DNA of 56,072 bases. It comes from Steroidobacteraceae bacterium. GTDB taxonomy: Bacteria > Pseudomonadota > Gammaproteobacteria > Steroidobacterales > Steroidobacteraceae. Positions 2,491 to 33,347 of the stretch are shown here, one piece after another. The stretch covers positions 1-56,072 of the forward strand of contig DASXLF010000564.1 of NCBI GenBank assembly GCA_036496405.1, read 5' to 3'. The stretch's first letter is position 1. Every line of letters starts with the position of its first letter. A program made the translations under genes and the position numbers. Below the pieces are notes generated by a model. It made no database searches. It was not told the origin of the DNA and saw only the letters and a program-made list of their open reading frames with translations.

Positions 2491-2500
2491 GCGTATGTCC

Positions 2501-4048: not shown

Positions 4049-4184
4049 CGAAGAGCTCCCCCGAAAATGTGAATGAGGTTGTTGCTGCAGTTGATACGAA
4101 CGGCACCGCAGATCGGATGCAATCGGGCACAAGAATTGTCGCTGTAGATTTTGCAGAGCGTTCGGCGCTCAAACCTCGGTTAGC

Positions 4185-10052: not shown

Positions 10053-10236
10053 GTCACATCCCTAGTCTGTGGCGTTATTTCTTCTATCCCGAGACCCAGA
10101 TCGCAAGTTAAACCCAGTTCGCTGCCACGGCAATGGAAGTTGCGTGATAACGACAATCGAGACAGCTGGCGGCACAGTTGGAGTGCGGCGCCGGCCCGGT
10201 GCCGCGCGATCCGCCCGGTGCTGGTGCGCTGCCGTG

Positions 10237-10824: not shown

Positions 10825-10842
10825 GGGTTGCGCGTTCGTACG

Positions 10843-11724: not shown

Positions 11725-11771
11725 GGTGTGCCGATGATGCTAGCGCAGTCGGCGCTCTTATACTGGCGCGC

Positions 11772-12668
11772 ATGAGTGCCTTGCTGCTGCTGTTCGCCTG
11801 TCTCGCCCTGGGCATCGTGGTCGCGCAGTTGGCACGGCCACCGGCTGGACTGGCGCAATCCCTGAATTGGTGGGTCATCAACATCGCACTGCCGGCGTTG
11901 GTGCTGAATGTCATCCCACGCATCCACTTCCAGACCCAGTTCTGGTTTCTGACGGCCGCCAACTGGCTGGTGTTCGTGGGTTCGTGGCTGTTGTTTGCCG
12001 TGCTCGGCAAAACCATGGGGTGGTCACGCGCGCGCATCGGCGCGTTGACGCTGGTTGGCGGTCTTGGCAACACCGCGTTCATGGGCTATCCCATGATTCT
12101 GGCGCTGCGCGGCACGCAGGGACTGTCGCTGGCCGTGATCGGCGATCAGACCGGCTGCTTTACCGCGCTGGTGATCGGCGGTGTCGCGGTCACTGTGATT
12201 TACGCTGACCGGCGGCTGCGGCCATGGCAGGTGCTGCGCCAGATCCTGCTGTTCCCGGCCTTTGTCGCGCTCATGGCCGGAATACTACTCGGTGTGCTGG
12301 GTGATCCGTTCGCGCTGCTGCATGATCTGTGCGGCTCCGTGGCGGCGACACTGACGCCGCTGGCGCTGTTTTCCGTGGGCTTACAGCAGCGACTGGTCTT
12401 GCCGCGCGCACACCTCCCGGCCATCGGCTGCGTTCTAGGATGGAAGCTGCTGCTCGCGCCGCTGGCATGCCTGGGCCTTGGACGGGCAGGCGGCGTCACC
12501 GGGCTGGTGCTGGCGGTGGGGGTGCTGCAGGCAGCCATGCCGCCAATGATCTCGGCGGCGATCCTGGCCGATCAATACCGACTAGAGCCAGCGCTGGCCA
12601 ATGCAGTGCTGGGTCTGGCCATATTGATTTCGCTGCTCACGGTACCGTGGATCAACACCCTGCTGTAG
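11772..12668 (+). CDS. AEC (auxin efflux carrier) family transporter
   Basis: 298 aa polytopic protein. GLGNTAFMGYP and MPPMISAAILA are typical of the AEC/membrane transport family. Confidence 0.85.
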   Translation: MSALLLLFACLALGIVVAQLARPPAGLAQSLNWWVINIALPALVLNVIPRIHFQTQFWFLTAANWLVFVGSWLLFAVLGKTMGWSRARIGALTLVGGLGNTAFMGYPMILALRGTQGLSLAVIGDQTGCFTALVIGGVAVTVIYADRRLRPWQVLRQILLFPAFVALMAGILLGVLGDPFALLHDLCGSVAATLTPLALFSVGLQQRLVLPRAHLPAIGCVLGWKLLLAPLACLGLGRAGGVTGLVLAVGVLQAAMPPMISAAILADQYRLEPALANAVLGLAILISLLTVPWINTLL

Positions 12669-12698
12669 TCGGGCGCCGCCGTGCGAACTGTTCCCAGC

Positions 12699-13544
12699 CT
12701 ATTTGGGCTCGCTGCCCGGCTGGGCATCCTCCATCGGATAGGTGTGGACGGCTCCGGACCCGGGCGGCGGGCTCGAAGCAGGGGCGACAGTGGCCGGCGG
12801 CGGCGGTGGAGAGCCCGGTGCACTGCTGGAAGCAGCGGCGTCGGTGGTGCCGTTGGTGCTCGCGGCCACTGCGGCCAGGAAACGCCGGGCCGTTTCCGCA
12901 TGCGTGACGACCTTGCCGGTGGTGATCTCGGTAGTGGTCACTTCGTCGCCGTGATAGAAAGCATTGTTGGCGCGATGATCAAAGGCGATGACGGTGCCAT
13001 CGAGGGCGACACCGGCAAACAGGCCGCGCGAGCGGGAATAAGAGTAGATTTCGGCGTTGATGCCGGCGGCCGCTTCAGTCTGGCGGCCCACGGGGCCGGC
13101 TGCGACCGAGGCATCGGCGCCCAGGGTGAACTTGCCGCGCGCGAAATTCTCCACACTGCGCTGAGTCACGAACACCAGCACGACATCAGTGGAGGTCGCT
13201 CCGACCTGCCAGCCGACACTGCCGCCCGAAAGGCTGATGAAAATAGGGTTGCTGAACCGGCCCGATGCGTCGCGCACGCTGAGCACACCGTTGCCGTAGC
13301 GGCCGCCAAAAATGAACGCACCCTTGATGACTTCGGGGATTACCGCCACGCCATAGGCGCGTTGCATGAGCCAGTCAGGCACATTCTGGTCCGGCGTCGC
13401 CCGCAACTCCTCCAGTACCTGGGTGGAAGTGATGAGGCGCGCGTCCTCGCGGCTCTGGTCGGCCGTCTGCGCGAAAGCCTGGGGCAGGAATGCCATCAAC
13501 GTCGCGCCGCACAGCAGCAGGCGCTGAAATAAGGATCGGTTCAT
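12699..13544 (-). CDS. SYLF (Ysc84/DUF500) lipid-binding-domain secreted protein with Pro-rich tail
   Basis: I trimmed the start to the ATG at 13544 (MNRSLFQRLLLCGATLMAFLPQAFA, a signal peptide). The core carries AYGVAVIPEVIKGAFIFGGRYGNGVL...GGSVGWQVGA...FTLGADASVAAGPVGR, which is the SYLF pattern. The 407 aa track version runs back into the upstream gene. Confidence 0.8.
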   Translation of the reverse strand: MNRSLFQRLLLCGATLMAFLPQAFAQTADQSREDARLITSTQVLEELRATPDQNVPDWLMQRAYGVAVIPEVIKGAFIFGGRYGNGVLSVRDASGRFSNPIFISLSGGSVGWQVGATSTDVVLVFVTQRSVENFARGKFTLGADASVAAGPVGRQTEAAAGINAEIYSYSRSRGLFAGVALDGTVIAFDHRANNAFYHGDEVTTTEITTGKVVTHAETARRFLAAVAASTNGTTDAAASSSAPGSPPPPPATVAPASSPPPGSGAVHTYPMEDAQPGSEPK

Positions 13545-13588
13545 GAATCGCCTCCAACAGCGATGGACATCAGGAGGCGGATAATCGT

Positions 13589-14758
13589 TCAGTACCAGAA
13601 GGAAATAAAGAACTGTGTGACGTTGGCGTCGAAAGAGTAGAGCGGCACGCCCACGGCTGAGCCGCCCACGGTGTAGTTGTGAAAGTCGTCGTAGGCCACG
13701 TGCAGCCGGTTGTAACTCAGGTTCAACGAGCCTTTTTCGATCCAGCGCGGCCAACTGGGATGGAACTGCCAGCTCGCCCCCAGCCCCAGCGTCAGGTCGT
13801 GAAACTGGGCTAATTCCCGGTCCCGGGACATGAAGTTCTGCGAGTCCTCGAAGGGGAACAGGTCGCTGTAGAAGTCCGCAGCCTTCTGGCGGTAATAACG
13901 GGCGTTCGCCGACAGCGTCCAACTGGTAAACAGCGGCTGCGTATAGCCCACTCCCAGGGTATGCGCCGTGATACCCCAGGTATCATGGTAAAAGCGGTAG
14001 TTACCATCGAGCGCGGCGTGCCACGGCAGGTAGTACTTCAGCTGCGCCGAGGCCGCATTGCCGGTGCGGGTATTGGGAGTGACCTGGTCTTCGGTCTGCA
14101 CCAATCCTTCGGGGTTCAGGTAGCGGGCAGAACGATAGGGACTCTGCAGATAACCGTCGCTCTCGTCGGTTTCGACGTTCACGGCCAGCAGCAGATTGCG
14201 CGTCAGGATTTGTGAGACGCTCGCCGTCCAATTGCGGTGATCGGCATCGCCGACCCAGGTCGTCATGCGGCCGCCATCGGCATAGCGGCCATTGAGATAA
14301 GTGTCCTCGCCCACCTTATCCCAGCCGCGCGAAAATCCGAACGACACCGTAGTGAGATCGCCGAACATCGACTGGCTGACCGAGAAGAAGGCGGTCCTGG
14401 CCTTGTAGTCCGGCTCGTTGCTCTCGATGTAGCCGGCGCTGTAGGTAGTGCTGCCACGCAGATAGTCGGCGCTCACACTGCCCTGCCTGCGGGTCTCCTT
14501 ATATGGGCTCGCGGTCGATAGCACGTCAACCGAGGCGCTGGAGATCATATCGACGTAGTAGTTGGCGGCCAGCGACAGCGAATCGGTGACCTTCTTGCGC
14601 ACCAGGATCGAGGGCCCTTCGACTGTGACACCGCCGCCTTCCCAGTCGTGGAACAGCAGGTCGGCGCGATCATCTGGAAGTACCGCAGCGCGCCCGGCCA
14701 TCGCCAGTGCGAACAGCGCCGCTATCAGGTTTCTGCCCCGGATACTGCTGCCAGCCAT
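13589..14758 (-). CDS. DUF3570-family outer-membrane beta-barrel protein
   Basis: Signal peptide followed by LLFHDWEGGGVTVEGPS. Alternating beta-strand patterns run throughout, and the protein ends in aromatic FISFWY. This matches my memory of DUF3570. Confidence 0.8.
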   Translation of the reverse strand: MAGSSIRGRNLIAALFALAMAGRAAVLPDDRADLLFHDWEGGGVTVEGPSILVRKKVTDSLSLAANYYVDMISSASVDVLSTASPYKETRRQGSVSADYLRGSTTYSAGYIESNEPDYKARTAFFSVSQSMFGDLTTVSFGFSRGWDKVGEDTYLNGRYADGGRMTTWVGDADHRNWTASVSQILTRNLLLAVNVETDESDGYLQSPYRSARYLNPEGLVQTEDQVTPNTRTGNAASAQLKYYLPWHAALDGNYRFYHDTWGITAHTLGVGYTQPLFTSWTLSANARYYRQKAADFYSDLFPFEDSQNFMSRDRELAQFHDLTLGLGASWQFHPSWPRWIEKGSLNLSYNRLHVAYDDFHNYTVGGSAVGVPLYSFDANVTQFFISFWY

Positions 14759-14998
14759 TTAGTTGCAGCCGCAGCCGCCGCCGACGCTGCCGGTCGCGCC
14801 ACGCGCGCCTTCGCGCACCTCGAATACGTGATCGAGGTAAGTGCTCGAGACCGGATTCGGGTCGAACGACATGATCGGGTCAGCCAGATGCTCGCGCTCG
14901 TACGGCTTGACCCACGGCTGCAACGGCGAACAGCCGCCCAGCAGCCCGATCGCCAAGGGCGCGAGCAGCGCGAGCATGCCGAGCCGGCGTCGCGTCAT
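14759..14998 (-). CDS. DUF4266-family small lipoprotein
   Basis: 79 aa with lipobox LLGGCS, then PWVKPYEREHLADPIMSF and a C-terminal GGGCGCN. Its stop codon directly abuts the DUF3570 ATG. Confidence 0.8.
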   Translation of the reverse strand: MTRRRLGMLALLAPLAIGLLGGCSPLQPWVKPYEREHLADPIMSFDPNPVSSTYLDHVFEVREGARGATGSVGGGCGCN

Positions 14999-15000
14999 CC

Positions 15001-15528
15001 CTACTCCCGCACCAAGCTTCGAATCTGATCCAGGTATTCGCTTTCCTCGCCGGGCTTATAGCCATGATGCACGTAGCGTACCTTGCCGGTGCGATCGAGT
15101 ATCACGGTGCTGGGCATGCCGGACACCTCGTACAGCTTACTGACCTTGCTGTCGGTGTCGAACAGTATCGGAAATGAGACAGGGGTGGACTTCAGGAAGC
15201 CCACGGCATCGGCGCTCTTGGGCTCAACGTTGACGCCCAGCAAGGTGAATCCGGCGGCCTTGTACTTCTTGTAGAGCTGGTCGAGCACCGGCATTTCCTG
15301 GCGGCATGGTCCGCACCAGCTGGCCCAGAAGTTGATCAGCACTACCTGGCCTTTGAGATCGCTCAGGGACATATCCTTGCTTCCCGAGGAGGGCAGTTCG
15401 AATCCGGGCGCCACCGCCCCGGCGGTGATACTGTCCGCTACGGCCGCGGCACTGAGGGCCAGCGCCACGCCACACACCAGAACCCGCACTGTCGTCCGCA
15501 CCTGATCATGGACCGCGCTTGCTTTCAT
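15001..15528 (-). CDS. TlpA-family periplasmic thiol:disulfide oxidoreductase
   Basis: I trimmed the start to the ATG at 15528, which has a GGAG SD. The protein has a signal/anchor segment and the thioredoxin motif FWASWCGPCRQEMP. It lies 2 nt upstream of the DUF4266 gene. Confidence 0.85.
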   Translation of the reverse strand: MKASAVHDQVRTTVRVLVCGVALALSAAAVADSITAGAVAPGFELPSSGSKDMSLSDLKGQVVLINFWASWCGPCRQEMPVLDQLYKKYKAAGFTLLGVNVEPKSADAVGFLKSTPVSFPILFDTDSKVSKLYEVSGMPSTVILDRTGKVRYVHHGYKPGEESEYLDQIRSLVRE

Positions 15529-15572
15529 AAGGTCTCCGTCGCGAGCGCACGCGCCTTTGCGGCGGCATGCGT

Positions 15573-16271
15573 CTAGAAGAATACGGTCGCACCAATGGTT
15601 GCCTGAAGATTGTTCTTCAGCTCCTCCACACCCGTGACGTCGGACCTGAAGACCAGGTCCTGCACGTCGATATGCAACGCCAGCCAATCCGTCGGCAGCA
15701 CCCTGAAGCCGGCCCCGAAGTTCACCGTGAAGTTTTGATCACCCGCGAACTTGACGCTGCCGATGCCGCCGAGCACGTAAAACGCGCTGGTCATGGCGAG
15801 ATTGCGACCGATGAAGATCTCGCCCGGGAGCAAGTTGTAGCCCAGAGACAGGTTGTAATACGTGAAGCGCCTCTCAGCATCGGAAAGCAATTGCACGTTG
15901 CTCAGCGTCTCAAAGCTGGTAAAGCCAGCCTTGGCGCGGCCGTAGGTCGCCTCGGCGAAGAAATCCTCGCTGATGTGATAATCGAAGCGCAGTCCCGCCA
16001 CCGGTTGCGAGCCGAAGTCCTGGATGGACAGCTCACCGTAATACGCTCCCAATTCAACGTTGCTGGGACGGATCGTCGGCACCTTGATGGTGCGCCGCTC
16101 CACCTGTGGCTCGATGACGCTGGGTGGCGGCGAGTCCTTGTCGCTGGCTCCCGACGTCTGGTCCGACGGCTGCACACCGTCATCCGGTTTGGCGTGCCGA
16201 TGGAACATGGCGCAGCCGCCGCAAGCGAGCGCAACGAAGCTCAGTAAAAGAATGCGAATCCGAGTTTCCAT
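15573..16271 (-). CDS. Outer-membrane beta-barrel lipoprotein, unknown function
   Basis: Lipobox-like LACGGC, a Pro/Ser-rich linker, then alternating amphipathic strands ending in ATVFF. Its ATG at 16271 lies 31 nt inside the upstream gene. Confidence 0.7.
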   Translation of the reverse strand: METRIRILLLSFVALACGGCAMFHRHAKPDDGVQPSDQTSGASDKDSPPPSVIEPQVERRTIKVPTIRPSNVELGAYYGELSIQDFGSQPVAGLRFDYHISEDFFAEATYGRAKAGFTSFETLSNVQLLSDAERRFTYYNLSLGYNLLPGEIFIGRNLAMTSAFYVLGGIGSVKFAGDQNFTVNFGAGFRVLPTDWLALHIDVQDLVFRSDVTGVEELKNNLQATIGATVFF

Positions 16272-17026
16272 TCGTTCTTGACCTCGTTGCTGTTTTGATT
16301 CGTCAGGACCTCATGCTCGCGCAACTCACCGCGCAGAAACAGTCGCCGGCTCAAGTAAAAGCGCACACCCAGTCCGACGTAGGCGGTCTGATTGCTGGAA
16401 CTGACCGGTTGCGCCAGCGTGGCCTTTGGTTCCACCCGCTCATAGCCGCCGCCGAGGGTTACAAACGGCGAAAGACGCCGATTGGGCAGGAACACGTGAC
16501 TGAAACCCAGGTCGATCAAATAGCCATTGGACAGATTGCCGAGAAACTGGGAGGCGGATAGTTCTATTTTCAGGTTGTCAGTCAGCGACAGTGCCTGATA
16601 AGCCGAAATCAGTGTGGCGCCGGCATAGGCGCCGCCAAATGCGCCGCTCTCCCAGCGATGACTGGCAAATCCGGCGAGATCGCCGAGATTGAGCTGGAAC
16701 GGCGTACCGTCCGCCAGGGTCGTGCGCATGAGGTCGCGTTCGTACGCCCAGCCCTCGACGCCGCGTTCGGTGCGGACCTTGAACCACTCGGTGCGTCGCA
16801 TCAACACGTCCACCGATTCGCCACGGGCCACCACCTGGGTGACCGGGTAGCCGCGGCCGGGTCCGGTGTGCAGCTCCAAATAGGGCTGCACGACGAACAA
16901 TTGCAGATAGTCGCGCGCACTGGCATCAGCCGCCGCCCCGAGCGAGAGCAGCAGCGCGGCGAGCAGGGGAGCGACCTTAGTTGGCCAGCGGCGCGTCGAA
17001 CGGGTTGTTGTAATACTGAGCTCCAA
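16241..17026 (-). CDS. Bacterial SH3-domain plus outer-membrane beta-barrel protein
   Basis: Signal peptide, then an SH3b-like segment (LELHTGPGRGYPVTQVVARGESVDVLMRRTEWFKVRTERGVEGWAYERDL). A beta-barrel-like C-terminal half ends in FAFFY. The only in-frame start ahead of the signal peptide is the TTG at 17026, which overlaps the upstream gene by 50 nt. Confidence 0.65.
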   Translation of the reverse strand: MELSITTTRSTRRWPTKVAPLLAALLLSLGAAADASARDYLQLFVVQPYLELHTGPGRGYPVTQVVARGESVDVLMRRTEWFKVRTERGVEGWAYERDLMRTTLADGTPFQLNLGDLAGFASHRWESGAFGGAYAGATLISAYQALSLTDNLKIELSASQFLGNLSNGYLIDLGFSHVFLPNRRLSPFVTLGGGYERVEPKATLAQPVSSSNQTAYVGLGVRFYLSRRLFLRGELREHEVLTNQNSNEVKNEWKLGFAFFY

Positions 17027-19760
17027 TATCCACCCACTCTGACAACAGCCGCAGCTCCGCTGCGGTCATGAACCCGGCATGGTTCACTGTCCCCGTCACG
17101 CTGCAGCCCATGCTGGCGCCGGTGATCGTCGCGAAAAAGCACGAGCCGTTGGCGCTGCCGGCGGCAATCGGACCGGGCACCGCTACCCCCGAGTCTACCA
17201 ACTGATTGGTCATGTTGAGTGATAAGACGTCGTGAGTCTCCACGAGCTGGGTATAGGCGCGCAACTGCGCGGTGGCACTTTGCGCCGGATCGGCATCGAG
17301 CTGCAGGTTGCCGTCGGGCGGCATCGGCACCGCCACACCTCCGACCATGGTGGTGCGGGTCGCGGTGTGGCAATTAGTGCAGGTATTGGCACCCAGCGGA
17401 TTCACGCTGATGTCACCGCGCACCATGCTCCACAACGGATCGATGATGGTCGGGTAGTTGATGATGCTCAGGCAATACCCCGACCATACGCCCACGCACG
17501 CCTGCACAATTGGCAGGTTCGAGGTCAGTGCGCTGTAGGCGTATGAAATGGGTGCGTTCGGACCGGTGGTATTGGTGTTGCCGTCGCCCCAGGCGTCGTT
17601 GAATATCACATCCGCGCTCAATGGCGCCGCCGATGGCGTGGCGGCGTTGTTGTTGCAACTGACACTGCCCACCAGTTCCTGCGCCATGGTGTCACCCGGG
17701 CATAGCGTCAGCGTCGGTACGCTGCCATTGCCGGCAGCGGTGAAAGTCGAGCCGTCGCCGGCGTTGAGAGCGGTGAATAGTCCGGCGCGGCCATGCGATC
17801 GGCCGCTGACCTCGACCGCGATGCCATCGGCGCCAGTGATCACCTGCGAACCTTGCGGGGTGTGACAACCATTACAGCTCAGCACTTCGCCCGGCTGTAC
17901 CGTCAACCAGGAGCGGTGCCGCGGGAAGTCCGGTAATGCCCTGGCATTGGCGTCCAGCACCGTGATCTGAAAGGCCACATTCGCCGGCACCATCACACGC
18001 ACCGAGCCGTCGGGCTCGATCGGTACGTAGCCGAGCAGCTGGCGCATGTAGCCCACTGAGCCGCCGAGCGCGATGTTGCGGTCGAATTTCGGAAACCCGT
18101 CCTTGAGCCGGGTATCGCCGAAAGCCACGGCCTTCTCGATGCGCAGGAATCGCGCTGGCCGGTTCGCGGCGCTGGCTGTAGCCACCGACCCCAGGCTGGC
18201 ATTGGCGCCGAGGCCGGCCGCGACACCGTCGCGATCGTAGACGCTGCGGATGTCGAGAATGCCGTAAGCGGGATCGAATCCCTGGGGTACCGCGGAGTCG
18301 AGCGGGCAACTGATAGTGTTGGTGCAGGGAATGGTGCGCGGCTCCAGCGACACCAGGTCACTGATCATCTCGCCTTCTACCGGCGCGAAGATGGGTTTCA
18401 GCGTGCTGTCGTTGAAATTGAGCAGCCAGGCGCTGTAGAGCGGCGGCGCGAGCGACAGACCGGTAGCGCTGGAGTTCACGTTGGCGAGGTTGTCGGCGCT
18501 GCACGCGACGATCACGCCGGTGGCATCCTGCAGCCGGCATTGACCCCAACTCACCAGCACGCGGTTGGTGCCGTCCCACAGGGGGAAGGCTGAATTGAAA
18601 CGCCCGCCCGGCGAGGGCACCGGCACGCCGTTGGCGGTTTGTGTACGCACGTCGTTCTGGGTGGCGGTGGTTTGTGCGGTCGCGGCAGTCGGGTAGAGCG
18701 TGTCGGGCAGCGACTGATTATTTTCGGCGAAGCCGTCGATGTTGATGATCTGCAGATTGCCGCCGAAGTCGGCATCGGCAAACGGGCGTACCAGCGCCAG
18801 CACGCGACCGTCCTGCAACTGGCGCGTGTTCACGAATTGCACCGCGCAGCTCAGGCCCGACGGGCACTGTGCGGCGTCCGACGGATTGGTACTGCTGGTC
18901 TCGTGGCTTTGCGCGCCGTACAGCAACTGCACGCCGGTGCCATCGGGATTGGCACTGTAGAGATGCATGGCGCTGCCGCCGGTGCGCCCCGGCGTGTTGT
19001 CCCAGCGGCTCCACATGATGCGACCGCTGGACATCAACGAGGCGTCGACGTCATGACTGGGGTTGTATGAGATCTGATGAATGCCGGTGCCGTCAGCATT
19101 CATTACTTCCAGCAGAAAATCCGAGGTGTTCTGCGACTCGGTCTGGGCTTCGAACGGTTGCACGTTCTCGCCAGTGCCGCCTTCATTGATCAACACCTCG
19201 CGCGATGTGGTCTGGCGTGTCGAGGAGAAGACGATGCGGCCGTCGGTGAGATAGTGCGGGCCGACATCGTTGGCATTGGGTTCGGTGTCGACACTGGTGC
19301 CAGTCAGCTGGCTCAGCACTTTTCCCGGCACATTGTATTGCCAGATGTGCCAACTCGGGGGCGAGAAATCCTGTTGGTTCGGAGTGATCGGGCCACGCAT
19401 GGCGAATACCAGCAAGGTGCCATCCGGCGACACGTCCAGGTCTTTCACATCCCAGACATCGGTGCCGGTGACGCTGGCGGTAATGTTCTGTTCCACGCCG
19501 GTGGGACTGGCGCTGGTGCGCACATAGACATCGGCCTTGCCCCAGTAGTTGCGCGGGAGCGTCACGTCGTCCTTGGCGCGCAGTTGTGCCAGGCCGGCGG
19601 CGTCGGCCGGCAGCGTGCGTTTGACGTAGGCAATCGCGAAGTCGATGTTCAATCCGCTCGAGGACTGACCCTTGCCGATATTGAGATCACCGCGACTGCT
19701 GCAGGCAGCGATGATTGCCGCCGCGAGCGCGATGCCCAGCGTGCGTGTTTGACGTCTCAT
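16977..19760 (-). CDS. Large lipoprotein: TolB-like beta-propeller plus C-terminal dihaem c region (hydrazine synthase alpha-subunit-like architecture)
   Basis: Lipobox AIIAACSS, with propeller-type repeats (VSPDGTLLVF, LTDGRIVFSS, NADGTGIHQIS, ANPDGTGVQLLY). There are two CxxCH motifs, CNGCH at 17862-17876 and CTNCH at 17367-17381. The start is either the ATG at 19760 or the TTG at 19769. Confidence 0.8.
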   Translation of the reverse strand: MRRQTRTLGIALAAAIIAACSSRGDLNIGKGQSSSGLNIDFAIAYVKRTLPADAAGLAQLRAKDDVTLPRNYWGKADVYVRTSASPTGVEQNITASVTGTDVWDVKDLDVSPDGTLLVFAMRGPITPNQQDFSPPSWHIWQYNVPGKVLSQLTGTSVDTEPNANDVGPHYLTDGRIVFSSTRQTTSREVLINEGGTGENVQPFEAQTESQNTSDFLLEVMNADGTGIHQISYNPSHDVDASLMSSGRIMWSRWDNTPGRTGGSAMHLYSANPDGTGVQLLYGAQSHETSSTNPSDAAQCPSGLSCAVQFVNTRQLQDGRVLALVRPFADADFGGNLQIINIDGFAENNQSLPDTLYPTAATAQTTATQNDVRTQTANGVPVPSPGGRFNSAFPLWDGTNRVLVSWGQCRLQDATGVIVACSADNLANVNSSATGLSLAPPLYSAWLLNFNDSTLKPIFAPVEGEMISDLVSLEPRTIPCTNTISCPLDSAVPQGFDPAYGILDIRSVYDRDGVAAGLGANASLGSVATASAANRPARFLRIEKAVAFGDTRLKDGFPKFDRNIALGGSVGYMRQLLGYVPIEPDGSVRVMVPANVAFQITVLDANARALPDFPRHRSWLTVQPGEVLSCNGCHTPQGSQVITGADGIAVEVSGRSHGRAGLFTALNAGDGSTFTAAGNGSVPTLTLCPGDTMAQELVGSVSCNNNAATPSAAPLSADVIFNDAWGDGNTNTTGPNAPISYAYSALTSNLPIVQACVGVWSGYCLSIINYPTIIDPLWSMVRGDISVNPLGANTCTNCHTATRTTMVGGVAVPMPPDGNLQLDADPAQSATAQLRAYTQLVETHDVLSLNMTNQLVDSGVAVPGPIAAGSANGSCFFATITGASMGCSVTGTVNHAGFMTAAELRLLSEWVDIGAQYYNNPFDAPLAN

Positions 19761-19879
19761 TATCTCCAAGCTCCGTTACCGCTTGATTGAGAGTTCATTC
19801 TTTGGCGCTTCAATGCGATGTGATCCCGGTCTCAGTTTTTAACCCTGCATTCAACGATACGATAACGTTGATACGTAAT

Positions 19880-19915
19880 GAGCCGTGATGTCTGTGCTTT
19901 GAGACATTACGGCTC
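19880..19915. repeat. 14-bp imperfect inverted repeat (hairpin) in the divergent intergenic region
   Basis: GAGCCGTGATGTCT (19880-19893), loop gtgctttg, AGACATTACGGCTC (19902-19915). There is one G/A mismatch, which would be a G:U pair in RNA. Confidence 0.3.
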
Positions 19916-19945
19916 TCTGAACCCGTGCGTATAGTCGCTCGCACT

Positions 19946-19964
19946 GTGCAAAGATATTTTGCAC
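19946..19964. promoter_or_regulatory. Perfect palindrome GTGCAAA-gatat-TTTGCAC, candidate operator just upstream of the SD of the plus-strand haem operon
   Basis: Read directly. It sits in the most AT-rich segment of the window (19770-19960) and ends 2 nt before the AGGGAG SD at 19966-19971. Confidence 0.35.
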
Positions 19965-19976
19965 CAGGGAGTGATG

Positions 19977-21158
19977 ATGAGCACAGCAGGGACACGCAGC
20001 AGCGCCGCGCGGCACGCGACGAGCTTGATGCTCGCTGCACTCCTAGGATTTCAGCCGCTGGCCCCGCTCATTGCCGGAGCTAACGAACAGGCCGCTCGCA
20101 TGCACAGCCGTCTGGCCGGCGTACCGCCCAGCAGCGCGGTGCTTGCGCAGATGGCGACGCTGATCAGCAACAACAATGCGCAGGCTGCGGCGCAGCTGGC
20201 GATGAACAACAGCGGCTTCTACAACGTGACGCTGCGCAATTTCATCGCGCCGGCGACCAATCGCGCGCAGTCGCCGTTCGTGCCGCTCAACGACTACACC
20301 GCCACCGTCATCGGCATGATCCGCGACAATGTGCCGTTCAACACGGTGCTGTCGGCGGATCTGCTCTACATAGGCAACGTCAGCGGCGCACCGCCGTATT
20401 CGCCGAGCAACAATAATCACTACCAGTATCTCGACGACCACGGCGTGGACCTGAAATCCGCGCTTGTTGCGACGACGCAGTCCTCGCTTACCGGCATACC
20501 GTCTTCGGCCACCGCCGGGGTGATCACCACCGAGGCGGCGGCGGCGGCGTTTTTCATTGCCGGCACTAATCGCGCGATGTTCCGCTTCACCATGATCAAC
20601 TACCTGTGCAATGACATGCCGCAGGTCATGGATATCTCGCGGCCGCCGGATCGCATCCGCCAGGACGTCAGCCGCTCACCCGGCGGAGACAGCCGCGTGT
20701 TCCTGAATAATTGCATCGGTTGCCACGCCGCCATGGATCCCATGGCGCAGGCATTCGCGTACTACAACTACGATCCGACGGCGCTGCAGCTGGTCTACAC
20801 GCCCGGGCAGACGCAGGCGAAGTATCACATCAACACTGGCAACTTCCCGTATGGCTTTGTCACGCCGGACGACTCATGGGACAACCGCTGGCGTACCGGA
20901 CCGAATGCATTACTGGGCTGGAGCCCGGGGCTGCCCGGCAGCGGCAATGGCGCCAAGTCGCTGGGGCAGGAATTGGCCAGCAGTCAGGCGTTCGCCGACT
21001 GTCAGGTGCAGAAGGTATTTCAGGCCATATGCCTGCGTCCGCCGAGTAATGCTGCCGATCGCACCGAGGCGGCGCAAATCGTCGCCGACTTCAAGTCCGG
21101 CGGATACAACATGAAGCAGGTCTTTGCCGAGACTGCCGCGTACTGCATGGGTAACTAG
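19977..21158 (+). CDS. Secreted monohaem protein, DUF1585/DUF1588-like (Planctomycete PSCyt/PSD-type)
   Basis: I chose the ATG at 19977, 5 nt after the AGGGAG SD; the track uses the TTG at 19959. It has a signal-like N-terminus. CIGCH at 20712-20726 sits in the context NNCIGCHAAMDPMAQAF, which resembles the C..CH...DP.G motif I recall for DUF1588. Confidence 0.75.
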   Translation: MSTAGTRSSAARHATSLMLAALLGFQPLAPLIAGANEQAARMHSRLAGVPPSSAVLAQMATLISNNNAQAAAQLAMNNSGFYNVTLRNFIAPATNRAQSPFVPLNDYTATVIGMIRDNVPFNTVLSADLLYIGNVSGAPPYSPSNNNHYQYLDDHGVDLKSALVATTQSSLTGIPSSATAGVITTEAAAAAFFIAGTNRAMFRFTMINYLCNDMPQVMDISRPPDRIRQDVSRSPGGDSRVFLNNCIGCHAAMDPMAQAFAYYNYDPTALQLVYTPGQTQAKYHINTGNFPYGFVTPDDSWDNRWRTGPNALLGWSPGLPGSGNGAKSLGQELASSQAFADCQVQKVFQAICLRPPSNAADRTEAAQIVADFKSGGYNMKQVFAETAAYCMGN

Positions 21159-21189
21159 GCGACGCCGCCGGCCTCTCTGGGAGACTACA

Positions 21190-23691
21190 GTGAATCGAAT
21201 CCGTCCCCGTCCGCCGACTCTGGTGCTCCAGCTGGCCCTGCTGGGGCTGGTCGCCTGTTCCGGCGGCGCACCCACGACGCAGAATCCGAACACTGCCGTC
21301 ACCACCGCATCCGTGTACGCCGGGCCGGCGCCGGCATCGGCGGACGTCGAGGCGTTCAAGGTCAATCTGTGGCAGAACATCAATATGGCGTCGCGCTGCG
21401 GTGGCTGCCACAAAGCCGGCGGACAGTCGCCGATGTTCGCGCGCAGCGACGATGTCAACCAGGCCTATAGCGCCGCGCTCACGGTGGTCAATCTCACGCA
21501 GGCCGATCAGTCCACCATGGTGGTCAAGGTCGCGGGCGGACACAATTGCTGGCTCTCGAGTCCGTCGGCGTGCGCGGACATTCTCACCACATGGATTCAG
21601 AACTGGGCCGGAGGCGGCTCGGGCGGCGCTGCCGGCTCGACACAGATCGTGCTCACCGCGCCGGTCGATCAGGCGGTGGGACCGACCAAGCAGTTCCCGG
21701 CCGACTCATCGCTGTTCTCCAGCACGGTGTATCCGTTGCTGACCATGTTCTGCTCGCGCTGCCATTCCCCGAATGCGACCGTGCCGCAGTCGCCGTATTT
21801 CGCCAGCAGCAACGTCGATCAGGCGTACGCCGCGGCGCAGGCCAAGATCGACCTGAATGATCCGACGCTCTCGCGCTTCTACGTGCGCCTGGCGACGGAA
21901 TCGCACAATTGCTGGCCGACCACGACCGGTGGCCCGGTGGACTGCCCCGGAAGCGCCGCCCGCATGCTGGCGGCGATCCAGGCCTATGCCAATGCCGTGC
22001 CGACCACGCCGGTGGATCCGACGCTGGTAGTGTCGCGCGCCCTCACGCTCTACGCCGGTACGGTCGCCTCCGGCAATAATCGCTATGACGCCGACATCAT
22101 TGCCCGCTGGCTGTTCAAAGAGGGCAGCGGCAGCACCGCCTTCGACACCAGCGGCGTCGATCCGGCGATCAACCTGACGATCTCGGGCAATACCAACTGG
22201 GACAGCGCCTGGGGCCTGATCTTCGGCACTGGCGGCGCCAAGGCCCAGGGCTCGACCGCCACCAGCAGCAAAATCTTCAGCGCCATCAACACCAGTGGCC
22301 AATATTCGCTCGAGCTGTGGGCCGCGCCGGCCAACGTCACCCAGACCATGGCCTTCATGGGGGGCTACTCCGGCGGCACCGCGGCGCGCAATTTCACGCT
22401 CGCCCAGGATGCCATGCAGTATCAGGCGTACGGGCGCAGCACCGTCACTGATGCCAATGGCGCGCCGCCATTGACTACTGCTGCCGCCAATATGAATGCG
22501 CAGGCGGCATTGCAGCACATCGTCCTCACCTACGATCCCACTCACGGACGTCAGCTGTTCGTCAACGGCAACTTCACCGGTGACTTAGACCCGCTGACCG
22601 GCGGCACGCTCGGCAACTGGGACAACACCTTTGCCTTCCTGCTCGGCAATGAAACGTCCAATGACCGGCCATGGCAGGGAGAAATCCGTTTTGCCGCGGT
22701 CCACAACCACGCCATGACGCTGGCGCAGATTCAGGAGAACTACGCCGCCGGCGTCGGCCAGCTCTACTATTTGTTGTTCGACGTCAGTGCGCTGACCGGT
22801 GTCTCGCAGAGCTACATCATGTTCACCGCCAGCCAGTACGACAATTACAGCTATCTGTTTGACAAGCCGACGTTCATCAGTCTCAACCCGAAGGCACAGC
22901 CCGGAAATATTCCGATCAAGGGCCTGTACATCGGCATCAACGGTCAGGAAGCGGCGGTCGGCCAGGCTTACAGCACGCTGAATACCACGGTGAGCAACGC
23001 CAATTATTCACCCACCGCCGGTCAGCTGCTGTCGAGCATGGGTACGGTGTTGCCCATGCAGCTCGGGCCGGCGACCGATCTGTTCTTTCTGAGCTTCGAT
23101 CAGATCGGCACCAACACCCACGTGCGCACCTCGCCCACTCCCACGGCGCCGACGCCCACGGATCTCGCGCCTTCGGCCGATATTGGGCTGCACGTGTACG
23201 ATGAACTCAACGCCTCGATGGCGGGCATCACCGGAGTATCTCCAGGCCTGAGCGCGGTCAACACCACCTATCAGACCGTGGAGCAGCAATTGCCAACGGT
23301 AGCGAATATCCAGGGCTTCCTGCCGTCGCAGGAAATCGGTATCTCGCAGCTGGCAATCCAGTACTGCAATGCGCTGGTCAACGACAGTACGCTCGAGCCG
23401 GCATTCTTCCCTGGCCTGAATCTGAACCAGACTCCGGCAGCGGCGTTCGGTACCACCGCCGGCATGGACCTGGTGATCACGCCGCTGATCAACAGTCCCG
23501 CCATCGGTGCCGGTCTGGCCAGCCAGCCCACGGCCGCGCAGGTGCGCACCGAGCTCTACAGCCTGATGACGAACCTCGTCAACTGCAGCGTCAGTGATCC
23601 GACCTGCGTGCAGACCCCGACGCGTACCCAGACCATCACCAAGGCCGTGTGCGCCACCGTGCTCGGCAGCGCGACGACTTTGATCAAGTAG
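21190..23691 (+). CDS. Lipoprotein with duplicated CxxCH haem-c module and central LamG/concanavalin-like domain
   Basis: I chose the GTG at 21190, which has a GGGAG SD; this gives VNRIRPRPPTLVLQLALLGLVAC/SG with a lipobox. CGGCH is at 21397-21411 and CSRCH at 21751-21765, each followed about 45-55 aa later by HNCW. LamG-like hallmarks are present (WLFKEGSGSTAFDTSG...LFVNGNF...WQGEIRFAAVHNHAMTLAQIQENY). Confidence 0.75.
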   Translation: MNRIRPRPPTLVLQLALLGLVACSGGAPTTQNPNTAVTTASVYAGPAPASADVEAFKVNLWQNINMASRCGGCHKAGGQSPMFARSDDVNQAYSAALTVVNLTQADQSTMVVKVAGGHNCWLSSPSACADILTTWIQNWAGGGSGGAAGSTQIVLTAPVDQAVGPTKQFPADSSLFSSTVYPLLTMFCSRCHSPNATVPQSPYFASSNVDQAYAAAQAKIDLNDPTLSRFYVRLATESHNCWPTTTGGPVDCPGSAARMLAAIQAYANAVPTTPVDPTLVVSRALTLYAGTVASGNNRYDADIIARWLFKEGSGSTAFDTSGVDPAINLTISGNTNWDSAWGLIFGTGGAKAQGSTATSSKIFSAINTSGQYSLELWAAPANVTQTMAFMGGYSGGTAARNFTLAQDAMQYQAYGRSTVTDANGAPPLTTAAANMNAQAALQHIVLTYDPTHGRQLFVNGNFTGDLDPLTGGTLGNWDNTFAFLLGNETSNDRPWQGEIRFAAVHNHAMTLAQIQENYAAGVGQLYYLLFDVSALTGVSQSYIMFTASQYDNYSYLFDKPTFISLNPKAQPGNIPIKGLYIGINGQEAAVGQAYSTLNTTVSNANYSPTAGQLLSSMGTVLPMQLGPATDLFFLSFDQIGTNTHVRTSPTPTAPTPTDLAPSADIGLHVYDELNASMAGITGVSPGLSAVNTTYQTVEQQLPTVANIQGFLPSQEIGISQLAIQYCNALVNDSTLEPAFFPGLNLNQTPAAAFGTTAGMDLVITPLINSPAIGAGLASQPTAAQVRTELYSLMTNLVNCSVSDPTCVQTPTRTQTITKAVCATVLGSATTLIK

Positions 23692-23714
23692 AGATTTCAT
23701 ACGAGGCGCCAGTC

Positions 23715-25307
23715 ATGAAGATCAGACGCAAGCGGCCCCTGGGGCTGCACGACCCGCTCCGCCACCCGGATCATCCGCGGCCTTTCAGCCGCAGGGATTT
23801 CCTGGCGCAGGGCTTCATGCGTGGTGCCGCCACCGTTGCGGGCATGTCAGTCTTCAGTCTGTTTGCCGATCCGCGCAAGGCGTACGCCACGCTGGCGCCG
23901 GACATTGCCGCACTCAAGGCTTCGCCGTGCAACATCACCACCGGCTCGGGCATGATTCCTTTTATCTGCTTCGACCTTGCCGGCGGCGGCAACATTGCCG
24001 GCTCCAACGTGCTGGTCGGCGGCGGTGGCGGTCAGATGGATTTCCTGTCCACCGCTGGCTATAACCGCCTCGGACTGCCCGGCAACATGATCCCCAATGG
24101 CTCCGCCGGGATCGGCAACTTCATCGATCAAAGTCTGGGTCTCGCGTTTCACAGCGACAGCGCCTATCTGCGCGGCATTAAGCAGCGCATCGCCGTGGCG
24201 ACCGCGGCCAACGTCAATGGGGCGGTCATGCCGGCGATGAGCGAGAACGATACTGGCGACAACCCTCACAACCCCATGTACGGAATCTATAGTTCCGGCT
24301 ATGCGGTGTTGACCCCGCCGGCGGGGGATAAGGGCGACCTGCTGGCGCTGATCGGGACCGAGAGCTCAACCTCCGGCGGAAATTCCATGGCGCCGTCGTA
24401 CATGATCGACCCGACCGTGCCTCCGACCAAAGTCTCGCAGGCTTCGGATGTGACCGGGCTGGTGAGCACCGGCCAGCTGGTCGGACTGCTCAGCCAGAGC
24501 GATGCGACATTGGTGCTCGAATCGATCGAGCGCATCAGCAAGAACAAGCTCGATTCGGTCGACACCCTGCTCGGTACCCAGGACGCGGTGGTCAAGGACC
24601 TGGTGCAGTGCGGCTACGTGGGCGCGGCCGATCAGGTGGATCGCTACGGCAATGCCAGCGCGACTTTGAATCCCGACATGGACACCGCGATCGTCGGCCC
24701 GGGCGGTATATTCACCACCGCCGAGTACCAGGGTGACGCGAATTTCCGCGCCACCGCCGCGGTCATGAAAATGGTGGTGAACGGTTATGCGGCCGCCGGC
24801 ACCGTCGAACTCGGCGGCTACGACTACCACACGGGTGATCGTGCCACCGGCGAGATGCGCGATGTCGAAGCCGGTCAGTGCATCGGCGCCTGCCTGGAGT
24901 ACGCGGCGCGCATGGGACAGCCGCTGATGATCTATGTATTCACCGATGGCTCCGTGGTGTCGAGCGGCATGATCGACAATTCGGCGGGCGGTCGCGGCAA
25001 GGGTGTATGGACATCCGATAACCAGACCACCGCGGCAACGTTCTTCCTGGTCTACAACCCCAACGGCCGGGCGACCACGATCTCCAACCAGATCGGCAGC
25101 TACACCAGCGACGGTAACGTCAACACGACCTCCAGCCCCGGCGCCAACGCCGTCAACCTGCTGGCTGAGACCGTGGTATTGAACTACCTGGCGCTGCATA
25201 ACAAGGCCGGTGCGTTCCAGACGTTGCAGTGGGCCAGCGGTCTTGGCACCGGCTTGGGTAGTGCCAGCGCCTACGATGCGTTGATCGCTCTGGCGCCTAT
25301 TCGTTAG
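23715..25307 (+). CDS. Tat-exported protein, DUF1501/DUF1552-like (sulfatase-fold-like) partner
   Basis: ATG at 23715 with a GAGG SD 8 nt upstream. The twin-arginine motif FSRRDFLAQG is at 23787-23804. GGYDYHTGD is reminiscent of the GGWDTH motif of DUF1501. The family call is tentative. Confidence 0.7.
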   Translation: MKIRRKRPLGLHDPLRHPDHPRPFSRRDFLAQGFMRGAATVAGMSVFSLFADPRKAYATLAPDIAALKASPCNITTGSGMIPFICFDLAGGGNIAGSNVLVGGGGGQMDFLSTAGYNRLGLPGNMIPNGSAGIGNFIDQSLGLAFHSDSAYLRGIKQRIAVATAANVNGAVMPAMSENDTGDNPHNPMYGIYSSGYAVLTPPAGDKGDLLALIGTESSTSGGNSMAPSYMIDPTVPPTKVSQASDVTGLVSTGQLVGLLSQSDATLVLESIERISKNKLDSVDTLLGTQDAVVKDLVQCGYVGAADQVDRYGNASATLNPDMDTAIVGPGGIFTTAEYQGDANFRATAAVMKMVVNGYAAAGTVELGGYDYHTGDRATGEMRDVEAGQCIGACLEYAARMGQPLMIYVFTDGSVVSSGMIDNSAGGRGKGVWTSDNQTTAATFFLVYNPNGRATTISNQIGSYTSDGNVNTTSSPGANAVNLLAETVVLNYLALHNKAGAFQTLQWASGLGTGLGSASAYDALIALAPIR

Positions 25308-25477
25308 TCGGGGTCAAGCAGCGTTGCTGCAACCGTTTCCGGGGCGCACTCAATTGCTGGTGGCCATGTCTATGATTAGCGACAGCGGCGCCTCGCCGGT
25401 CTGTGGACTGGATCTCAAGCCATCGGCATCGGATTGACGGATAATGTTAAATCGTCGCCGGAGGTCTGCAAAAGAAA

Positions 25478-26017
25478 GTGCGAGTGCGGCTGAAGCATCG
25501 AGCGAACCGAACTGCCGGGCTCTGCCTGTGGTTGTATTGCGGCCTGCACTGGGGCGCCGCAACCGCGGCCAGTCCCGGCATCGTGGCACAGCGCGCGCCG
25601 GATTTTGCGCTGCCGGCAGCCGTTGGCGACAACGTGCGGCTGTCCGAATTCCGCGGCCAACCCGTGGTGCTCACATTCTGGAGCAGCCGCTGCAGTACCT
25701 GCGCGGCACAACTTGCGGCACTCGATCGTTACTACGCAACCTACCGCTCATCAGGTCTGGTGGTGCTGGGCGTCAGTGTCGAGGATGATCCGCAGCGCGC
25801 CTTACAATATGCGCGCGCACACTCGACTGCGTATCCGTTGCTGCTCGATCAGGCCAAGGCAGTTGCCCGCGCCTATGAGATCGAGCGCCTGCCGACTACG
25901 GTACTGATCGATCGCTCCGGCGTCGTGCGCTACCTGCACAGCGATGATCATCCCGCTGATACGTCCTACGTGACACAGATCCGCGCCTTGCTGGACGACA
26001 AAGTGGGCGCCCCATGA
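25478..26017 (+). CDS. TlpA/ResA-like periplasmic redoxin with CSTC active site
   Basis: Thioredoxin-fold pattern APDFALP...GQPVVLTFWSSRCSTCAAQL...YPLLLD...LPTTVLIDRSG, with a signal-like N-terminus. The GTG start is uncertain by a few codons. Confidence 0.8.
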   Translation: MRVRLKHRANRTAGLCLWLYCGLHWGAATAASPGIVAQRAPDFALPAAVGDNVRLSEFRGQPVVLTFWSSRCSTCAAQLAALDRYYATYRSSGLVVLGVSVEDDPQRALQYARAHSTAYPLLLDQAKAVARAYEIERLPTTVLIDRSGVVRYLHSDDHPADTSYVTQIRALLDDKVGAP

Positions 26018-26667
26018 ACTCTCTCACATCAATGCAGTCTCCCATGAACACAATGATTCGCCGTCTATCGTCGAGCTTCTGGCCGTTGCTGCTGCTGCCG
26101 CTCACCACTCCTGCATGGTGCGCCCAGCCGGCCGCGCCCGCCGCCGCCAGTGCTCCCGCGGCCCAGGCCGAGTCCGCTGCGTCCAAGAGCGATGCCGCTG
26201 CCGCCGATGCCGGCGGCGGCACGCGTGGGCTGGACGAGCAGATCCAGGACCTCAAGAAGGATGTCGTGGATCTCAACAAGGATCTGTTCGTGCTCGAAGA
26301 GGAACTGCTGTTTCCGGCCAACACGCAAGTGGCGGTGTTCGTGTCGATGGACGTCGGCGATTTCTTCGCCCTGGATTCGATCTCGCTGAAGATCGACAAT
26401 AAAGATGTCAGCGACTACCTGTATACCCCGCGAGAAGTGGCGGCATTGCTCAAGGGCGGGGTGCAGCGCCTGTACGTCGGCAATCTCAAGTCCGGCGAAC
26501 ACGAACTGGTGGCGCTGTTCAATGGCAAGGGACCGCACGAGCGCGACTACCGGCGCGCCGCCAACCTGCGCTTCGAAAAGGGCGTTGGTGCGAAGTACCT
26601 GGAACTGAAGATCACGGATCACCAGCGTGCGCAGCAACCCGAGTTCGAAATCAAGGATTGGGAATAG
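26014..26667 (+). CDS. Secreted protein, unknown function (coiled-coil plus beta-rich domain)
   Basis: The start overlaps the redoxin stop in ATGA. It has a signal peptide (FWPLLLLPLTTPAWC/AQP), an Ala-rich linker, a coiled-coil LDEQIQDLKKDVVDLNKDLFVLEEELL and then a beta-rich domain. I recognise no family. Confidence 0.65.
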   Translation: MNSLTSMQSPMNTMIRRLSSSFWPLLLLPLTTPAWCAQPAAPAAASAPAAQAESAASKSDAAAADAGGGTRGLDEQIQDLKKDVVDLNKDLFVLEEELLFPANTQVAVFVSMDVGDFFALDSISLKIDNKDVSDYLYTPREVAALLKGGVQRLYVGNLKSGEHELVALFNGKGPHERDYRRAANLRFEKGVGAKYLELKITDHQRAQQPEFEIKDWE

Positions 26668-26674
26668 CGGGCGT

Positions 26675-32585: not shown

Positions 32586-32664
32586 ATCGCGGTATTGCGC
32601 GTTTGCGTCACTTTAGTTTGACCATATCGGTGGATCATAGCGTTCAGGCATGGGAGTCAGCACG

Positions 32665-33321: not shown

Positions 33322-33347
33322 CACGGCTTTAGGCCCAGGTAGCGCGC

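Follow-up and report, generated by a model that had tools for sequence, protein, structure and literature searches.

Here we describe a conserved group of genes for exported and membrane-anchored proteins on a 56,072-nucleotide (nt) stretch of DNA from a Steroidobacteraceae bacterium (contig DASXLF010000564.1); the whole stretch, which has a G+C content of ~63%, is referred to as the window. A first-pass annotation had drawn attention to ten genes between 12699 and 25307 as a self-contained unit. They make up the redox half of a larger envelope locus of 19 genes and ~22.6 kb (12699-35312), which consists of two divergent operons, with genes A to G on the minus strand and H to R on the plus strand. 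The right edge drawn at 25307 is a true module boundary; it is not the end of the plus operon, which runs on to 35312. Comparison with related genomes indicates that the locus is composed of four modules, each of which is also found separately (H-I-J, D-C-B, G with E and F, and K to R), and that it is kept gene for gene in Steroidobacterales and Cellvibrionales-type gammaproteobacteria.

The minus operon opens with G (16977-19760), an HzsA-like dihaem propeller lipoprotein; in the family scans, in which the proteins of the window were compared with Pfam and NCBIfam, it matches PF18582 (HZS_alpha) at 61 bits. G overlaps by 50 nt with F (16241-17026), a secreted protein with an SH3 domain and a small outer-membrane beta-barrel (SH3_3, 38 bits; weak OMP_b-brl and TIGR04565 matches), which in turn overlaps by 31 nt with E (15573-16271), a lipoprotein with a small outer-membrane beta-barrel (TIGR04565 OMP_myx_plus, 151 bits against a cut-off of 60). 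After a 44-nt gap comes D (15001-15528), a TlpA/ResA-type periplasmic thioredoxin with a WCGPC motif (Redoxin, 102 bits; ResA subfamily, 124 bits), followed 2 nt later by C (14759-14998), a small DUF4266 lipoprotein with a C-terminal CGC (PF14086, 80 bits), and with no spacer at all by B (13589-14758), a DUF3570 outer-membrane barrel (PF12094, 155 bits against a cut-off of 25). The operon closes, 44 nt further on, with the facultative gene A (12699-13544), which encodes a secreted SYLF/Ysc84 protein with a proline-rich tail (PF04366, 130 bits; BPSL1445-like in NCBIfam).

The plus operon begins on the far side of a 216-bp divergent intergenic region (19761-19976) with H (19977-21158), a secreted monohaem protein that is remotely PSCyt3/PSD2-like. 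I (21190-23691) is a lipoprotein in which two haem c sites are combined with a LamG domain (Laminin_G_3, 58 bits) and a conserved C-terminal domain, and J (23715-25307) is exported by the twin-arginine translocation (Tat) pathway, as judged from its SRRDFL signal. The genes beyond J encode a second TlpA/ResA-type thioredoxin with a CSTC motif (K, 25478-26017; AhpC-TSA, 103 bits); a secreted protein of 217 residues with a coiled coil and a beta-rich domain (L, 26014-26667); a GltC-like periplasmic protein of 664 residues with coiled coil and weak tetratricopeptide repeat (TPR) matches (M, 26627-28621, with a likely start at the ATG at 26675); a protein of 1153 residues in which a large GltD-like TPR protein is fused to a small GltE-like one (N, 28618-32079; TPR and CpoB/YbgF-like repeats); and a small secreted protein of 169 residues (O, 32076-32585). 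They are followed by a TolQ/ExbB/AglR-type proton channel (P, 32650-33321; PF01618, 97 bits, best NCBIfam match TolQ), two TolR/ExbD-type proteins, one AglQ-like (Q1, 33348-33863; PF02472, 59 bits) and one AglS-like (Q2, 33860-34384; PF02472, 54 bits), and finally a TonB-like, GltG-type transducer (R, 34401-35312; NF033768, 66.7 bits against a cut-off of 40). Adjacent genes overlap by 4 nt at K/L, N/O and Q1/Q2.

The open reading frames reproduce the ten genes of the first-pass annotation with identical overlaps and gaps, and the five CxxCH sites, three outer-membrane barrels, thioredoxin and Tat signal that it had listed are all present in the translations at the sites noted. Its labels for A to G and for I are backed by family matches, with H and J falling above no cut-off, and its description of an envelope-only locus with redox cofactor motifs holds, since every product is exported or membrane-anchored. 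The CxxCH sites are CNGCH and CTNCH in G, CIGCH in H, and CGGCH and CSRCH in I; G, E, I and C carry a lipobox cysteine, and B, E and F end in the aromatic C-termini of outer-membrane barrels. The five CxxCH sites, both CxxC motifs, the CGC, the twin arginines and the lipoboxes are conserved in 50-78 orthologues from related loci, which shows that these features are under selection and are not chance strings. A scan for sigma-70 promoters and terminators over 12000-26500 gave nothing above background and no convincing sigma-70 site, and an Rfam scan of 12000-36000 likewise gave nothing above background. A 14-nt inverted repeat with an 8-nt loop (GAGCCGTGATGTCT / AGACATTACGGCTC) lies at 19880-19915 in the divergent intergenic region; it was rejected as a conserved operator, which it probably is not, because it is absent from the same region of related loci.

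The co-occurrence of these genes was followed across bacteria with a profile built from 16 aligned G homologues and scanned against a set with a single genome for each bacterial species. G relatives are encoded at 599 or more places; the best 80 were taken with 10-kb flanks, and their gene order was read by tblastn with all window proteins, counting for each gene only those loci whose contig is long enough to be testable. The order N-M-L-K-J-I-H, divergent from G-F-E-D-C-B-A, is kept as far as each contig reaches, at G identities down to 38%. On the minus side F is present in 76/76 testable loci, E in 73/73, D in 67/69, C in 67/68, B in 62/63 and the facultative A in 48/60; on the plus side the counts are 71/71 for H, 57/57 for I, 54/54 for J, and 50/54 for both K and L. 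The genes that flank the locus in the window at 7497-12668 (a TonB-dependent receptor, a rhomboid protease, an EamA transporter and a Mem_trans permease) stand beside it in 2-5 of the 80 relatives and are thus not part of it. The constant order in 80 genomes, set against flanks that are not conserved, excludes accidental adjacency. The first-pass annotation had also proposed that the two divergent halves are functionally linked; this is supported, since they are kept together in the 80 genomes, and in two further loci (L085 and L090) H-I-J and the thioredoxin/DUF4266/DUF3570 genes are rearranged yet still paired.

The plus operon continues past J in the window and in 50 of 54 relatives. The full H-to-R operon is present in L081 and L082, ending right after R in L081; L091 and the cultured species Mangrovimicrobium sediminis have this operon too, at a J identity of only 50%. 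Smaller versions of the locus also occur. The plus operon stops after J, with unrelated genes next, in 4/54 Steroidobacterales-type loci, and L088 has B-C-D-E-F-G divergent from H-I-J, followed by ApbE and without the motor. L085, a Myxococcota contig, and L090 have ApbE-DUF3570-DUF4266-Redoxin-DsbD divergent from H-I-J, and both are without G, E, F or the motor. The simplest form, found when distant J contexts were looked up starting from one distant J representative, is seen on three Bdellovibrionota-like contigs (L086, L087 and L089), which have just H, a gene for the C-terminal domain of I, J, and a gene for the second haem region of I; here H is 45-48% and J ~40% identical to the window proteins. 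These comparisons indicate that the modules nest, with H-I-J at the centre, then the thiol-flavin genes D-C-B, then G, F and E, and then the Glt-type core.

The surroundings of this minimal four-gene operon (L086:8104-12828, L087:7673-12891, L089:7753-12840) include the lipoprotein signal peptidase gene LspA as the next gene in L087 and L089, and TatA as well in L087, which hints that lipoprotein processing and Tat export are co-ordinated with the operon.

H-I-J is the oldest and most conserved unit of the locus, and it is probably the catalytic unit. H is 45-54% identical across phyla. It matches PSD2 at 20.0 bits (cut-off 25.8) and PSCyt3 at 14.2 bits (cut-off 27), both sub-threshold; the same weak PSD2 and PSCyt3 matches recur, in the right order, in 7/9 and 5/9 members of the H family, respectively, which indicates that H is only remotely related to PSCyt3 (DUF1588) and PSD2 (DUF1585). 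Both CxxCH sites of I are conserved, and its C-terminal domain (residues ~655-828) and second haem region are the parts encoded by separate genes in the Bdellovibrionota-like loci; a sequence search of the PDB gave no match for I. Profile comparison detected no mutual relationship among H, I and G outside the haem motifs. The nearest described parallel to this unit comes from bacteria of the Planctomycetes-Verrucomicrobia-Chlamydiae group, where genes for planctomycete-type cytochromes (PSCyt/PSD) form pairs with genes of DUF1501 or DUF1552 (He et al. 2017, mSphere, PMC5615132). Like those pairs, the unit combines a secreted CxxCH protein with weak PSCyt3 and PSD2 matches (H), a LamG domain (PF13385) on a cytochrome (I), and a conserved neighbouring gene without known function (J). 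In contrast to them, no Pfam match of H reaches its cut-off, J has no match to DUF1501 or DUF1552, and the unit in the window sits inside a far larger set of envelope genes.

J is better conserved than any other protein of the locus; among the matches listed, the top 120 are at least 65% identical, and the family comprises 1475 representatives at 50% clustering, with no relatives found on plasmids. Pfam and NCBIfam return nothing for J, L or O, whatever the threshold, and for J the absence of a Pfam match extends to 25 close relatives (E-values up to 10) and 10 distant relatives (E-values up to 1); a profile sequence search of the PDB likewise found no match. An AlphaFold2 model of J built from a diverse alignment of 66 sequences reached a pLDDT of 84 and a pTM of 0.81, compared with a pLDDT of 57 from a shallow alignment. 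When this model was compared with the PDB by Foldseek, all 50 of the 50 best matches belonged to the alkaline-phosphatase superfamily, among them cofactor-independent phosphoglycerate mutase, MCR-1, sulfatases, alkaline phosphatase and ENPP6; the matches are weak (E ≥ 0.0095, TM-score ~0.2, probability up to 0.94). Among the invariant residues are D87, where strand 83-88 ends, S149, where helix 150-158 begins, D370 and H372, which follow strand 359-366, and D411; in the model these would correspond to the metal-ligand and nucleophile positions of the superfamily. J may therefore, as modelled, have a remote alkaline-phosphatase-like core. Public records (P0176, P0430, P0431, P0451, P0492 and P0500) call proteins of the J family 'general secretion pathway protein GspF'. 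This name looks like a propagated mis-annotation, because J lacks the membrane-spanning features of GspF and instead carries a Tat signal and a putative alkaline-phosphatase-like core.

The D-C-B module corresponds, by family and gene order, to a published system. DUF3570 proteins are flavinylated by ApbE at two [S/T]GA[S/T] sites, and ApbE, DUF3570, a thioredoxin-like protein and DUF4266 with its C-terminal CXC cluster together, often with DsbD (Meheust et al. 2021, eLife, PMC8238504); Haft likewise pointed out the DUF4266/DUF3570/TlpA neighbourhood. B, C and D belong to the same three families and stand in the same order. C ends in a CXC that is invariant, as CGC, in 70/70 orthologues, with its lipobox cysteine also conserved, and the CGPC of D is found in 67/71 orthologues. 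B keeps two D-x-x-[ST]-x-A-[ST] sites, present in the window at residues 70-84 as a double ApbE-type motif, DMISSAS and DVLSTAS, that is, SSAS and STAS; the wider pattern D-x-[IV]-[ST]-[SG]-A-S-[IV]-D-[VA]-x-x-x-A-S-x-Y is kept in 65/67 B orthologues, some of which have SGAS twice. The window differs from the published system in that the glycine of [ST]GA[ST] is mostly replaced, its thioredoxin is of the Redoxin/AhpC-TSA type instead of PF13899, and neither ApbE nor DsbD is present. The published account names no H-I-J, HzsA-like or Glt-type motor partners.

ApbE lies inside the locus in 19/80 relatives, and is also found in L085, L088 and L090, with DsbD adjoining in L085 and L090. In 16 of the relatives it directly follows B on the opposite strand, ahead of A where A is present (L014, L019, L040, L043, L047, L050-L053, L056, L066, L067, L069 and L074) or with no A found (L024 and L037); in the other three (L061, L065 and L080) it sits in the plus operon between J and K. 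The two positions, together with its absence from the window, imply that the flavin transferase has been gained, lost or moved more than once.

TlpA/ResA-type proteins classically act as apocytochrome reductants, and D is ResA-like. The first-pass annotation had read the ten genes as a self-contained, undescribed periplasmic redox system, whose two operons are linked by a TlpA-type reductase that keeps the cysteines of CxxCH or copper sites reduced. Such a role for D is possible, and no other sub-block is as tightly conserved as the ten genes (J in 54/54 loci), whose plus operon truly ends after J in 4/54 relatives and in L088. Against this stand the nine further genes of the operon in the window, with its continuation in 50/54 relatives, and the company that D keeps: it always adjoins DUF4266 and DUF3570, and elsewhere ApbE and DsbD, which is the published module. 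A better candidate for cytochrome maturation is the second thioredoxin, K, which is encoded among the cytochrome genes of the plus operon; its CxxC is conserved, and it is absent from Cellvibrionales-type loci. We regard a self-contained ten-gene system of this kind as unlikely. The window is in addition rich in thiol-peroxidase and thioredoxin folds, with a glutathione peroxidase of cytoplasmic type at 5706-6188 alongside the secreted Redoxins D and K.

The third module is headed by G, which consists of a beta-propeller, a middle haem domain (CNGCH) and a C-terminal haem domain (CTNCH). This three-part layout and a final EW[VI]D[IL]GAQ motif are shared with the alpha subunit of Kuenenia hydrazine synthase (5C2V), with which G is collinear in four stretches (5c2v_A, E 5e-12) that cover the middle haem domain and the motif, as EWVDIGAQ. 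The relationship differs from identity in several respects: the similarity is very remote, no beta or gamma subunits accompany G, which is a lipoprotein followed by two outer-membrane barrels, and the host is not an anammox organism. We reject hydrazine synthase as the identity of G, given that the NCBIfam model hydrazine_alpha (NF052339) scores 50 bits against an equivalog cut-off of 800 and that the beta and gamma subunits are missing among the window genes scanned. The barrel genes downstream are paralogues of one another: E and F are related small barrels by profile comparison (hhalign probability 87%, E 4e-6), a relationship not significant by BLASTP, and the B barrel is unrelated to either in the same kind of comparison. 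Literature searches for TIGR04565 found nothing.

A broader nitrogen chemistry, involving N-oxides, hydroxylamine or a hydrazine-type reaction at G with the other cytochromes shuttling electrons, had been hinted at in the first-pass annotation. The collinearity with HzsA, the PF18582 match above its cut-off and the conservation of both haem motifs speak for it, and the support amounts to remote HzsA homology alone. No homologue of HzsB, HzsC, HAO or HDH was detected among the window genes scanned, and G is missing from L085, L090 and the Bdellovibrionota-like versions. A 2025 survey listed more than 600 structural homologues of HzsA from bacteria other than anammox organisms, and no function is known for any of them (PMC12758564); the hydrazine_alpha score, too, falls far short. 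Of the accounts we weighed, this one is the least probable.

The fourth module brings in TPR scaffolds and a proton-driven motor of TolQR/TonB-like type. An Agl/Glt 'core complex' has been described in non-gliding Gamma- and Betaproteobacteria, Geobacter and Fibrobacter as the ancestor-like form of the gliding (Agl-Glt) and spore-coat (Agl-Nfs) machines of Myxococcus (Luciano et al. 2011, PLoS Genet, PMC3169522). Its genes follow the order GltC, GltD, GltE, an extra gene, AglR, AglQ, AglS, GltG; the extra gene, whose place between the GltE and AglR homologues is apparent from the locus-tag gaps of Table S3, occurs in all non-myxobacterial core complexes. For the complex as a whole no function was known and no redox partners were reported (PMC3169522). 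In Cellvibrio (CJA_3319-3312) the products measure 660/964/244/-/231/181/173/323 residues (PMC3169522). Order and sizes of M to R match this arrangement, with one TolQ/ExbB and two TolR/ExbD genes in a row at 32650-34384 and, after these motor genes, R, which has a transmembrane helix, a Pro/Lys-rich linker and an AgmX/PglI C-terminal domain, together with weak GltG, GltJ and TonB_C matches. On these grounds M-N-O-P-Q1-Q2-R appears to be an Agl/Glt core complex.

M, which is conserved in 50 loci, fits in position and size the GltC homologues of published core complexes (550-692 residues), and O fits the extra gene by position and is conserved in L081, L082 and L084. Residues 31-932 and 946-1100 of N align to two separate Mangrovimicrobium genes of 971 and 203 residues, and L091 has separate GltD-like (927 residues) and GltE-like (210 residues) genes; since it matches two separate genes elsewhere, N is a fusion, which suggests that the GltD- and GltE-like parts act as one unit. 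L, whose median identity is 79%, is always found directly upstream of the GltC-like gene and is also present in L084 and L091; the J-(K)-L-GltC junction recurs in two orders of gammaproteobacteria whose J proteins share 50% identity. Apart from the fusion, the window is unlike the published core complexes in packing these genes into one operon with cytochromes, thioredoxins and the Tat protein J; GltF, GltH, GltI, GltJ, GltK and AglZ are absent from the window. Family scans found no FHA, GYF or large cytoplasmic TPR genes in the locus. A full Myxococcus-type gliding machine is rejected, as the full GltF/H/I/J/K/A/B group and the genes of the cytoplasmic platform are not present in the locus. 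Our literature searches turned up nothing that ties the core complex to cytochromes.

ExbB, ExbD and TonB_C domains are also the hallmarks of energised uptake, and they raise the possibility of reductive metal acquisition, in which a TonB/ExbBD energiser and the outer-membrane barrels would import a metal such as iron reduced by a chain of thiols, flavin and haem. In line with this, 25 of the DUF3570 clusters include a gene for a VIT1 iron transporter, flavinylation has been linked to iron assimilation (PMC8238504), and a TonB-dependent receptor is encoded at 7497-10052 in the window. That receptor lies outside the conserved block and is present in 3/80 loci, and inside the locus there is no receptor plug or barrel gene, iron transporter or Fur-type regulator. 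R, moreover, carries an AgmX/PglI-type C-terminal domain in a Glt-type gene order, not that of a TonB system. A classical TonB uptake system is rejected for want of a receptor (Plug and barrel) in the conserved block, and reductive iron acquisition is improbable as the function of the locus.

The modules could also be mere neighbours that act independently, with the core complex serving, for example, envelope maintenance or polysaccharide handling. The motor half can indeed be absent (4/54 loci and L088), and core complexes have been described without mention of redox neighbours (PMC3169522). Set against this are the tightness of the operon, with its 4-nt overlaps at K/L, N/O and Q1/Q2, the maintenance of the J-(K)-L-GltC junction across two orders while J has diverged to 50% identity, and the fact that the block is conserved and its flanking genes are not. 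Independence of the modules is very improbable in our judgement.

We favour, with a confidence a little better than even, the reading of a four-module, 19-gene envelope locus that joins H-I-J, a thiol-flavin relay (D-C-B), G-E-F and the Glt core. It starts from gene content, motifs, synteny and the recurrence of the modules, all of which are observed directly. For the path and direction of the electrons, the substrate and the role of the motor we argue by analogy, from the published behaviour of DsbD, thioredoxin and proteins flavinylated by ApbE and from the order of redox potentials. We propose that electrons from cytoplasmic thioredoxin would reach D via a DsbD encoded elsewhere in the genome, pass from D to the CGC of the DUF4266 protein C and on to flavin mononucleotide (FMN) on the DUF3570 barrel B in the outer membrane. 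From the FMN they would move to the haems of G, H and I, which may serve the reaction of J, the best catalytic candidate. The substrate of J would be extracytoplasmic and is probably polymeric or surface-bound, given the LamG domain of I, which may provide for its binding. The motor would act through R and the TPR scaffolds M and N, coupling the proton-motive force mechanically to E, F and B, with a role in the assembly, gating or surface exposure of the outer-membrane redox proteins, including G and I, by analogy with Agl-Glt. In that machine TPR proteins join a TolQR-like motor and a TonB-like protein to paired outer-membrane barrels and a surface propeller lipoprotein (PMC11761067). The gene packing implies co-transcription, and it is this that suggests a physical coupling of motor and redox proteins.

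Several points weigh against this reading. The alkaline-phosphatase-like fold of J is weak by score (best E 0.0095, TM-score ~0.2) and J has no sequence match in Pfam or the PDB. The canonical [ST]GA[ST] is degenerate in B (SSAS, STAS), making flavinylation of B only putative, and gene scans found no ApbE or DsbD encoded in the 56-kb window. The thioredoxins may have no task other than haem attachment. The motor half can be separated from the rest, being absent after J in 4/54 relatives and in L088, and the case for relating M and N to GltC, GltD and GltE of Myxococcus depends on gene order, protein size and TPR content.

As a comparison of mechanism only, the locus resembles Mtr/Pio-type porin-cytochrome conduits of the outer membrane. 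Its outer-membrane barrels are encoded beside redox carriers that are periplasmic or lipoproteins, an arrangement suggestive of electron transfer to or across the outer membrane. It differs in having no decahaem cytochromes or large MtrB-type porin, and the carrier in the outer membrane would be a thiol-fed, flavinylated barrel. A more specific and more tentative proposal is that the locus encodes a Glt-type motor whose cargo is an outer-membrane redox assembly instead of an adhesin or polysaccharide. By analogy, R with M and N would dock on E and F as GltA and GltB dock GltC, and would move or expose G and I in the manner of CglB, with reducing power supplied through B by a DsbD-fed route from thiol to CXC to flavin.

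Beyond the locus, the window contains a cluster of secreted proteins upstream, on the minus strand at 1043-4132, comprising a DUF4331 protein (477 bits), a small open reading frame and a TPR protein. On its other side, at 43574-53427, lies a GlgE-type alpha-glucan operon with a GlgE maltosyltransferase, a TreS-Mak-like fusion (alpha-amylase and maltokinase cap), GlgB and a debranching-type enzyme.

We see in the locus a new combination of known kinds, without claiming a new category of system. Two of its four modules have been published as systems of unknown function, the G family has been recognised and is uncharacterised, and J, L and O belong to no described family. In the literature searched, the core complex, DUF3570, HzsA-like proteins and the H-I-J unit are not connected with one another; the earlier statement that no described system combines these parts consequently stands for the union as a whole and not for the thioredoxin, DUF4266 and DUF3570 set (with ApbE, and with or without DsbD), which was already described (PMC8238504).

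One operon pair here unites four widespread sets of genes labelled 'function unknown': the core complex (2011), DUF3570 with DUF4266 (2021), the non-anammox HzsA homologues (2025) and the PSCyt-type pairs (2017). Comparative genomics shows that their association is selected, and each set thereby gains a context, namely an extracytoplasmic redox process at the outer membrane with H-I-J as its likely catalytic core. The G family occurs in at least 599 places among species representatives, mostly in Gammaproteobacteria of soil, sediment and freshwater, so the process is probably common in the environment; and because the cultured Mangrovimicrobium sediminis carries the full locus, it is open to genetics and biochemistry. 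If the proposed coupling of motor and redox proteins is true, the locus would encode an energised trans-outer-membrane electron-transfer machine of a new kind, and the gammaproteobacterial core complex, DUF3570 and the HzsA homologues outside anammox bacteria would each gain a first function.

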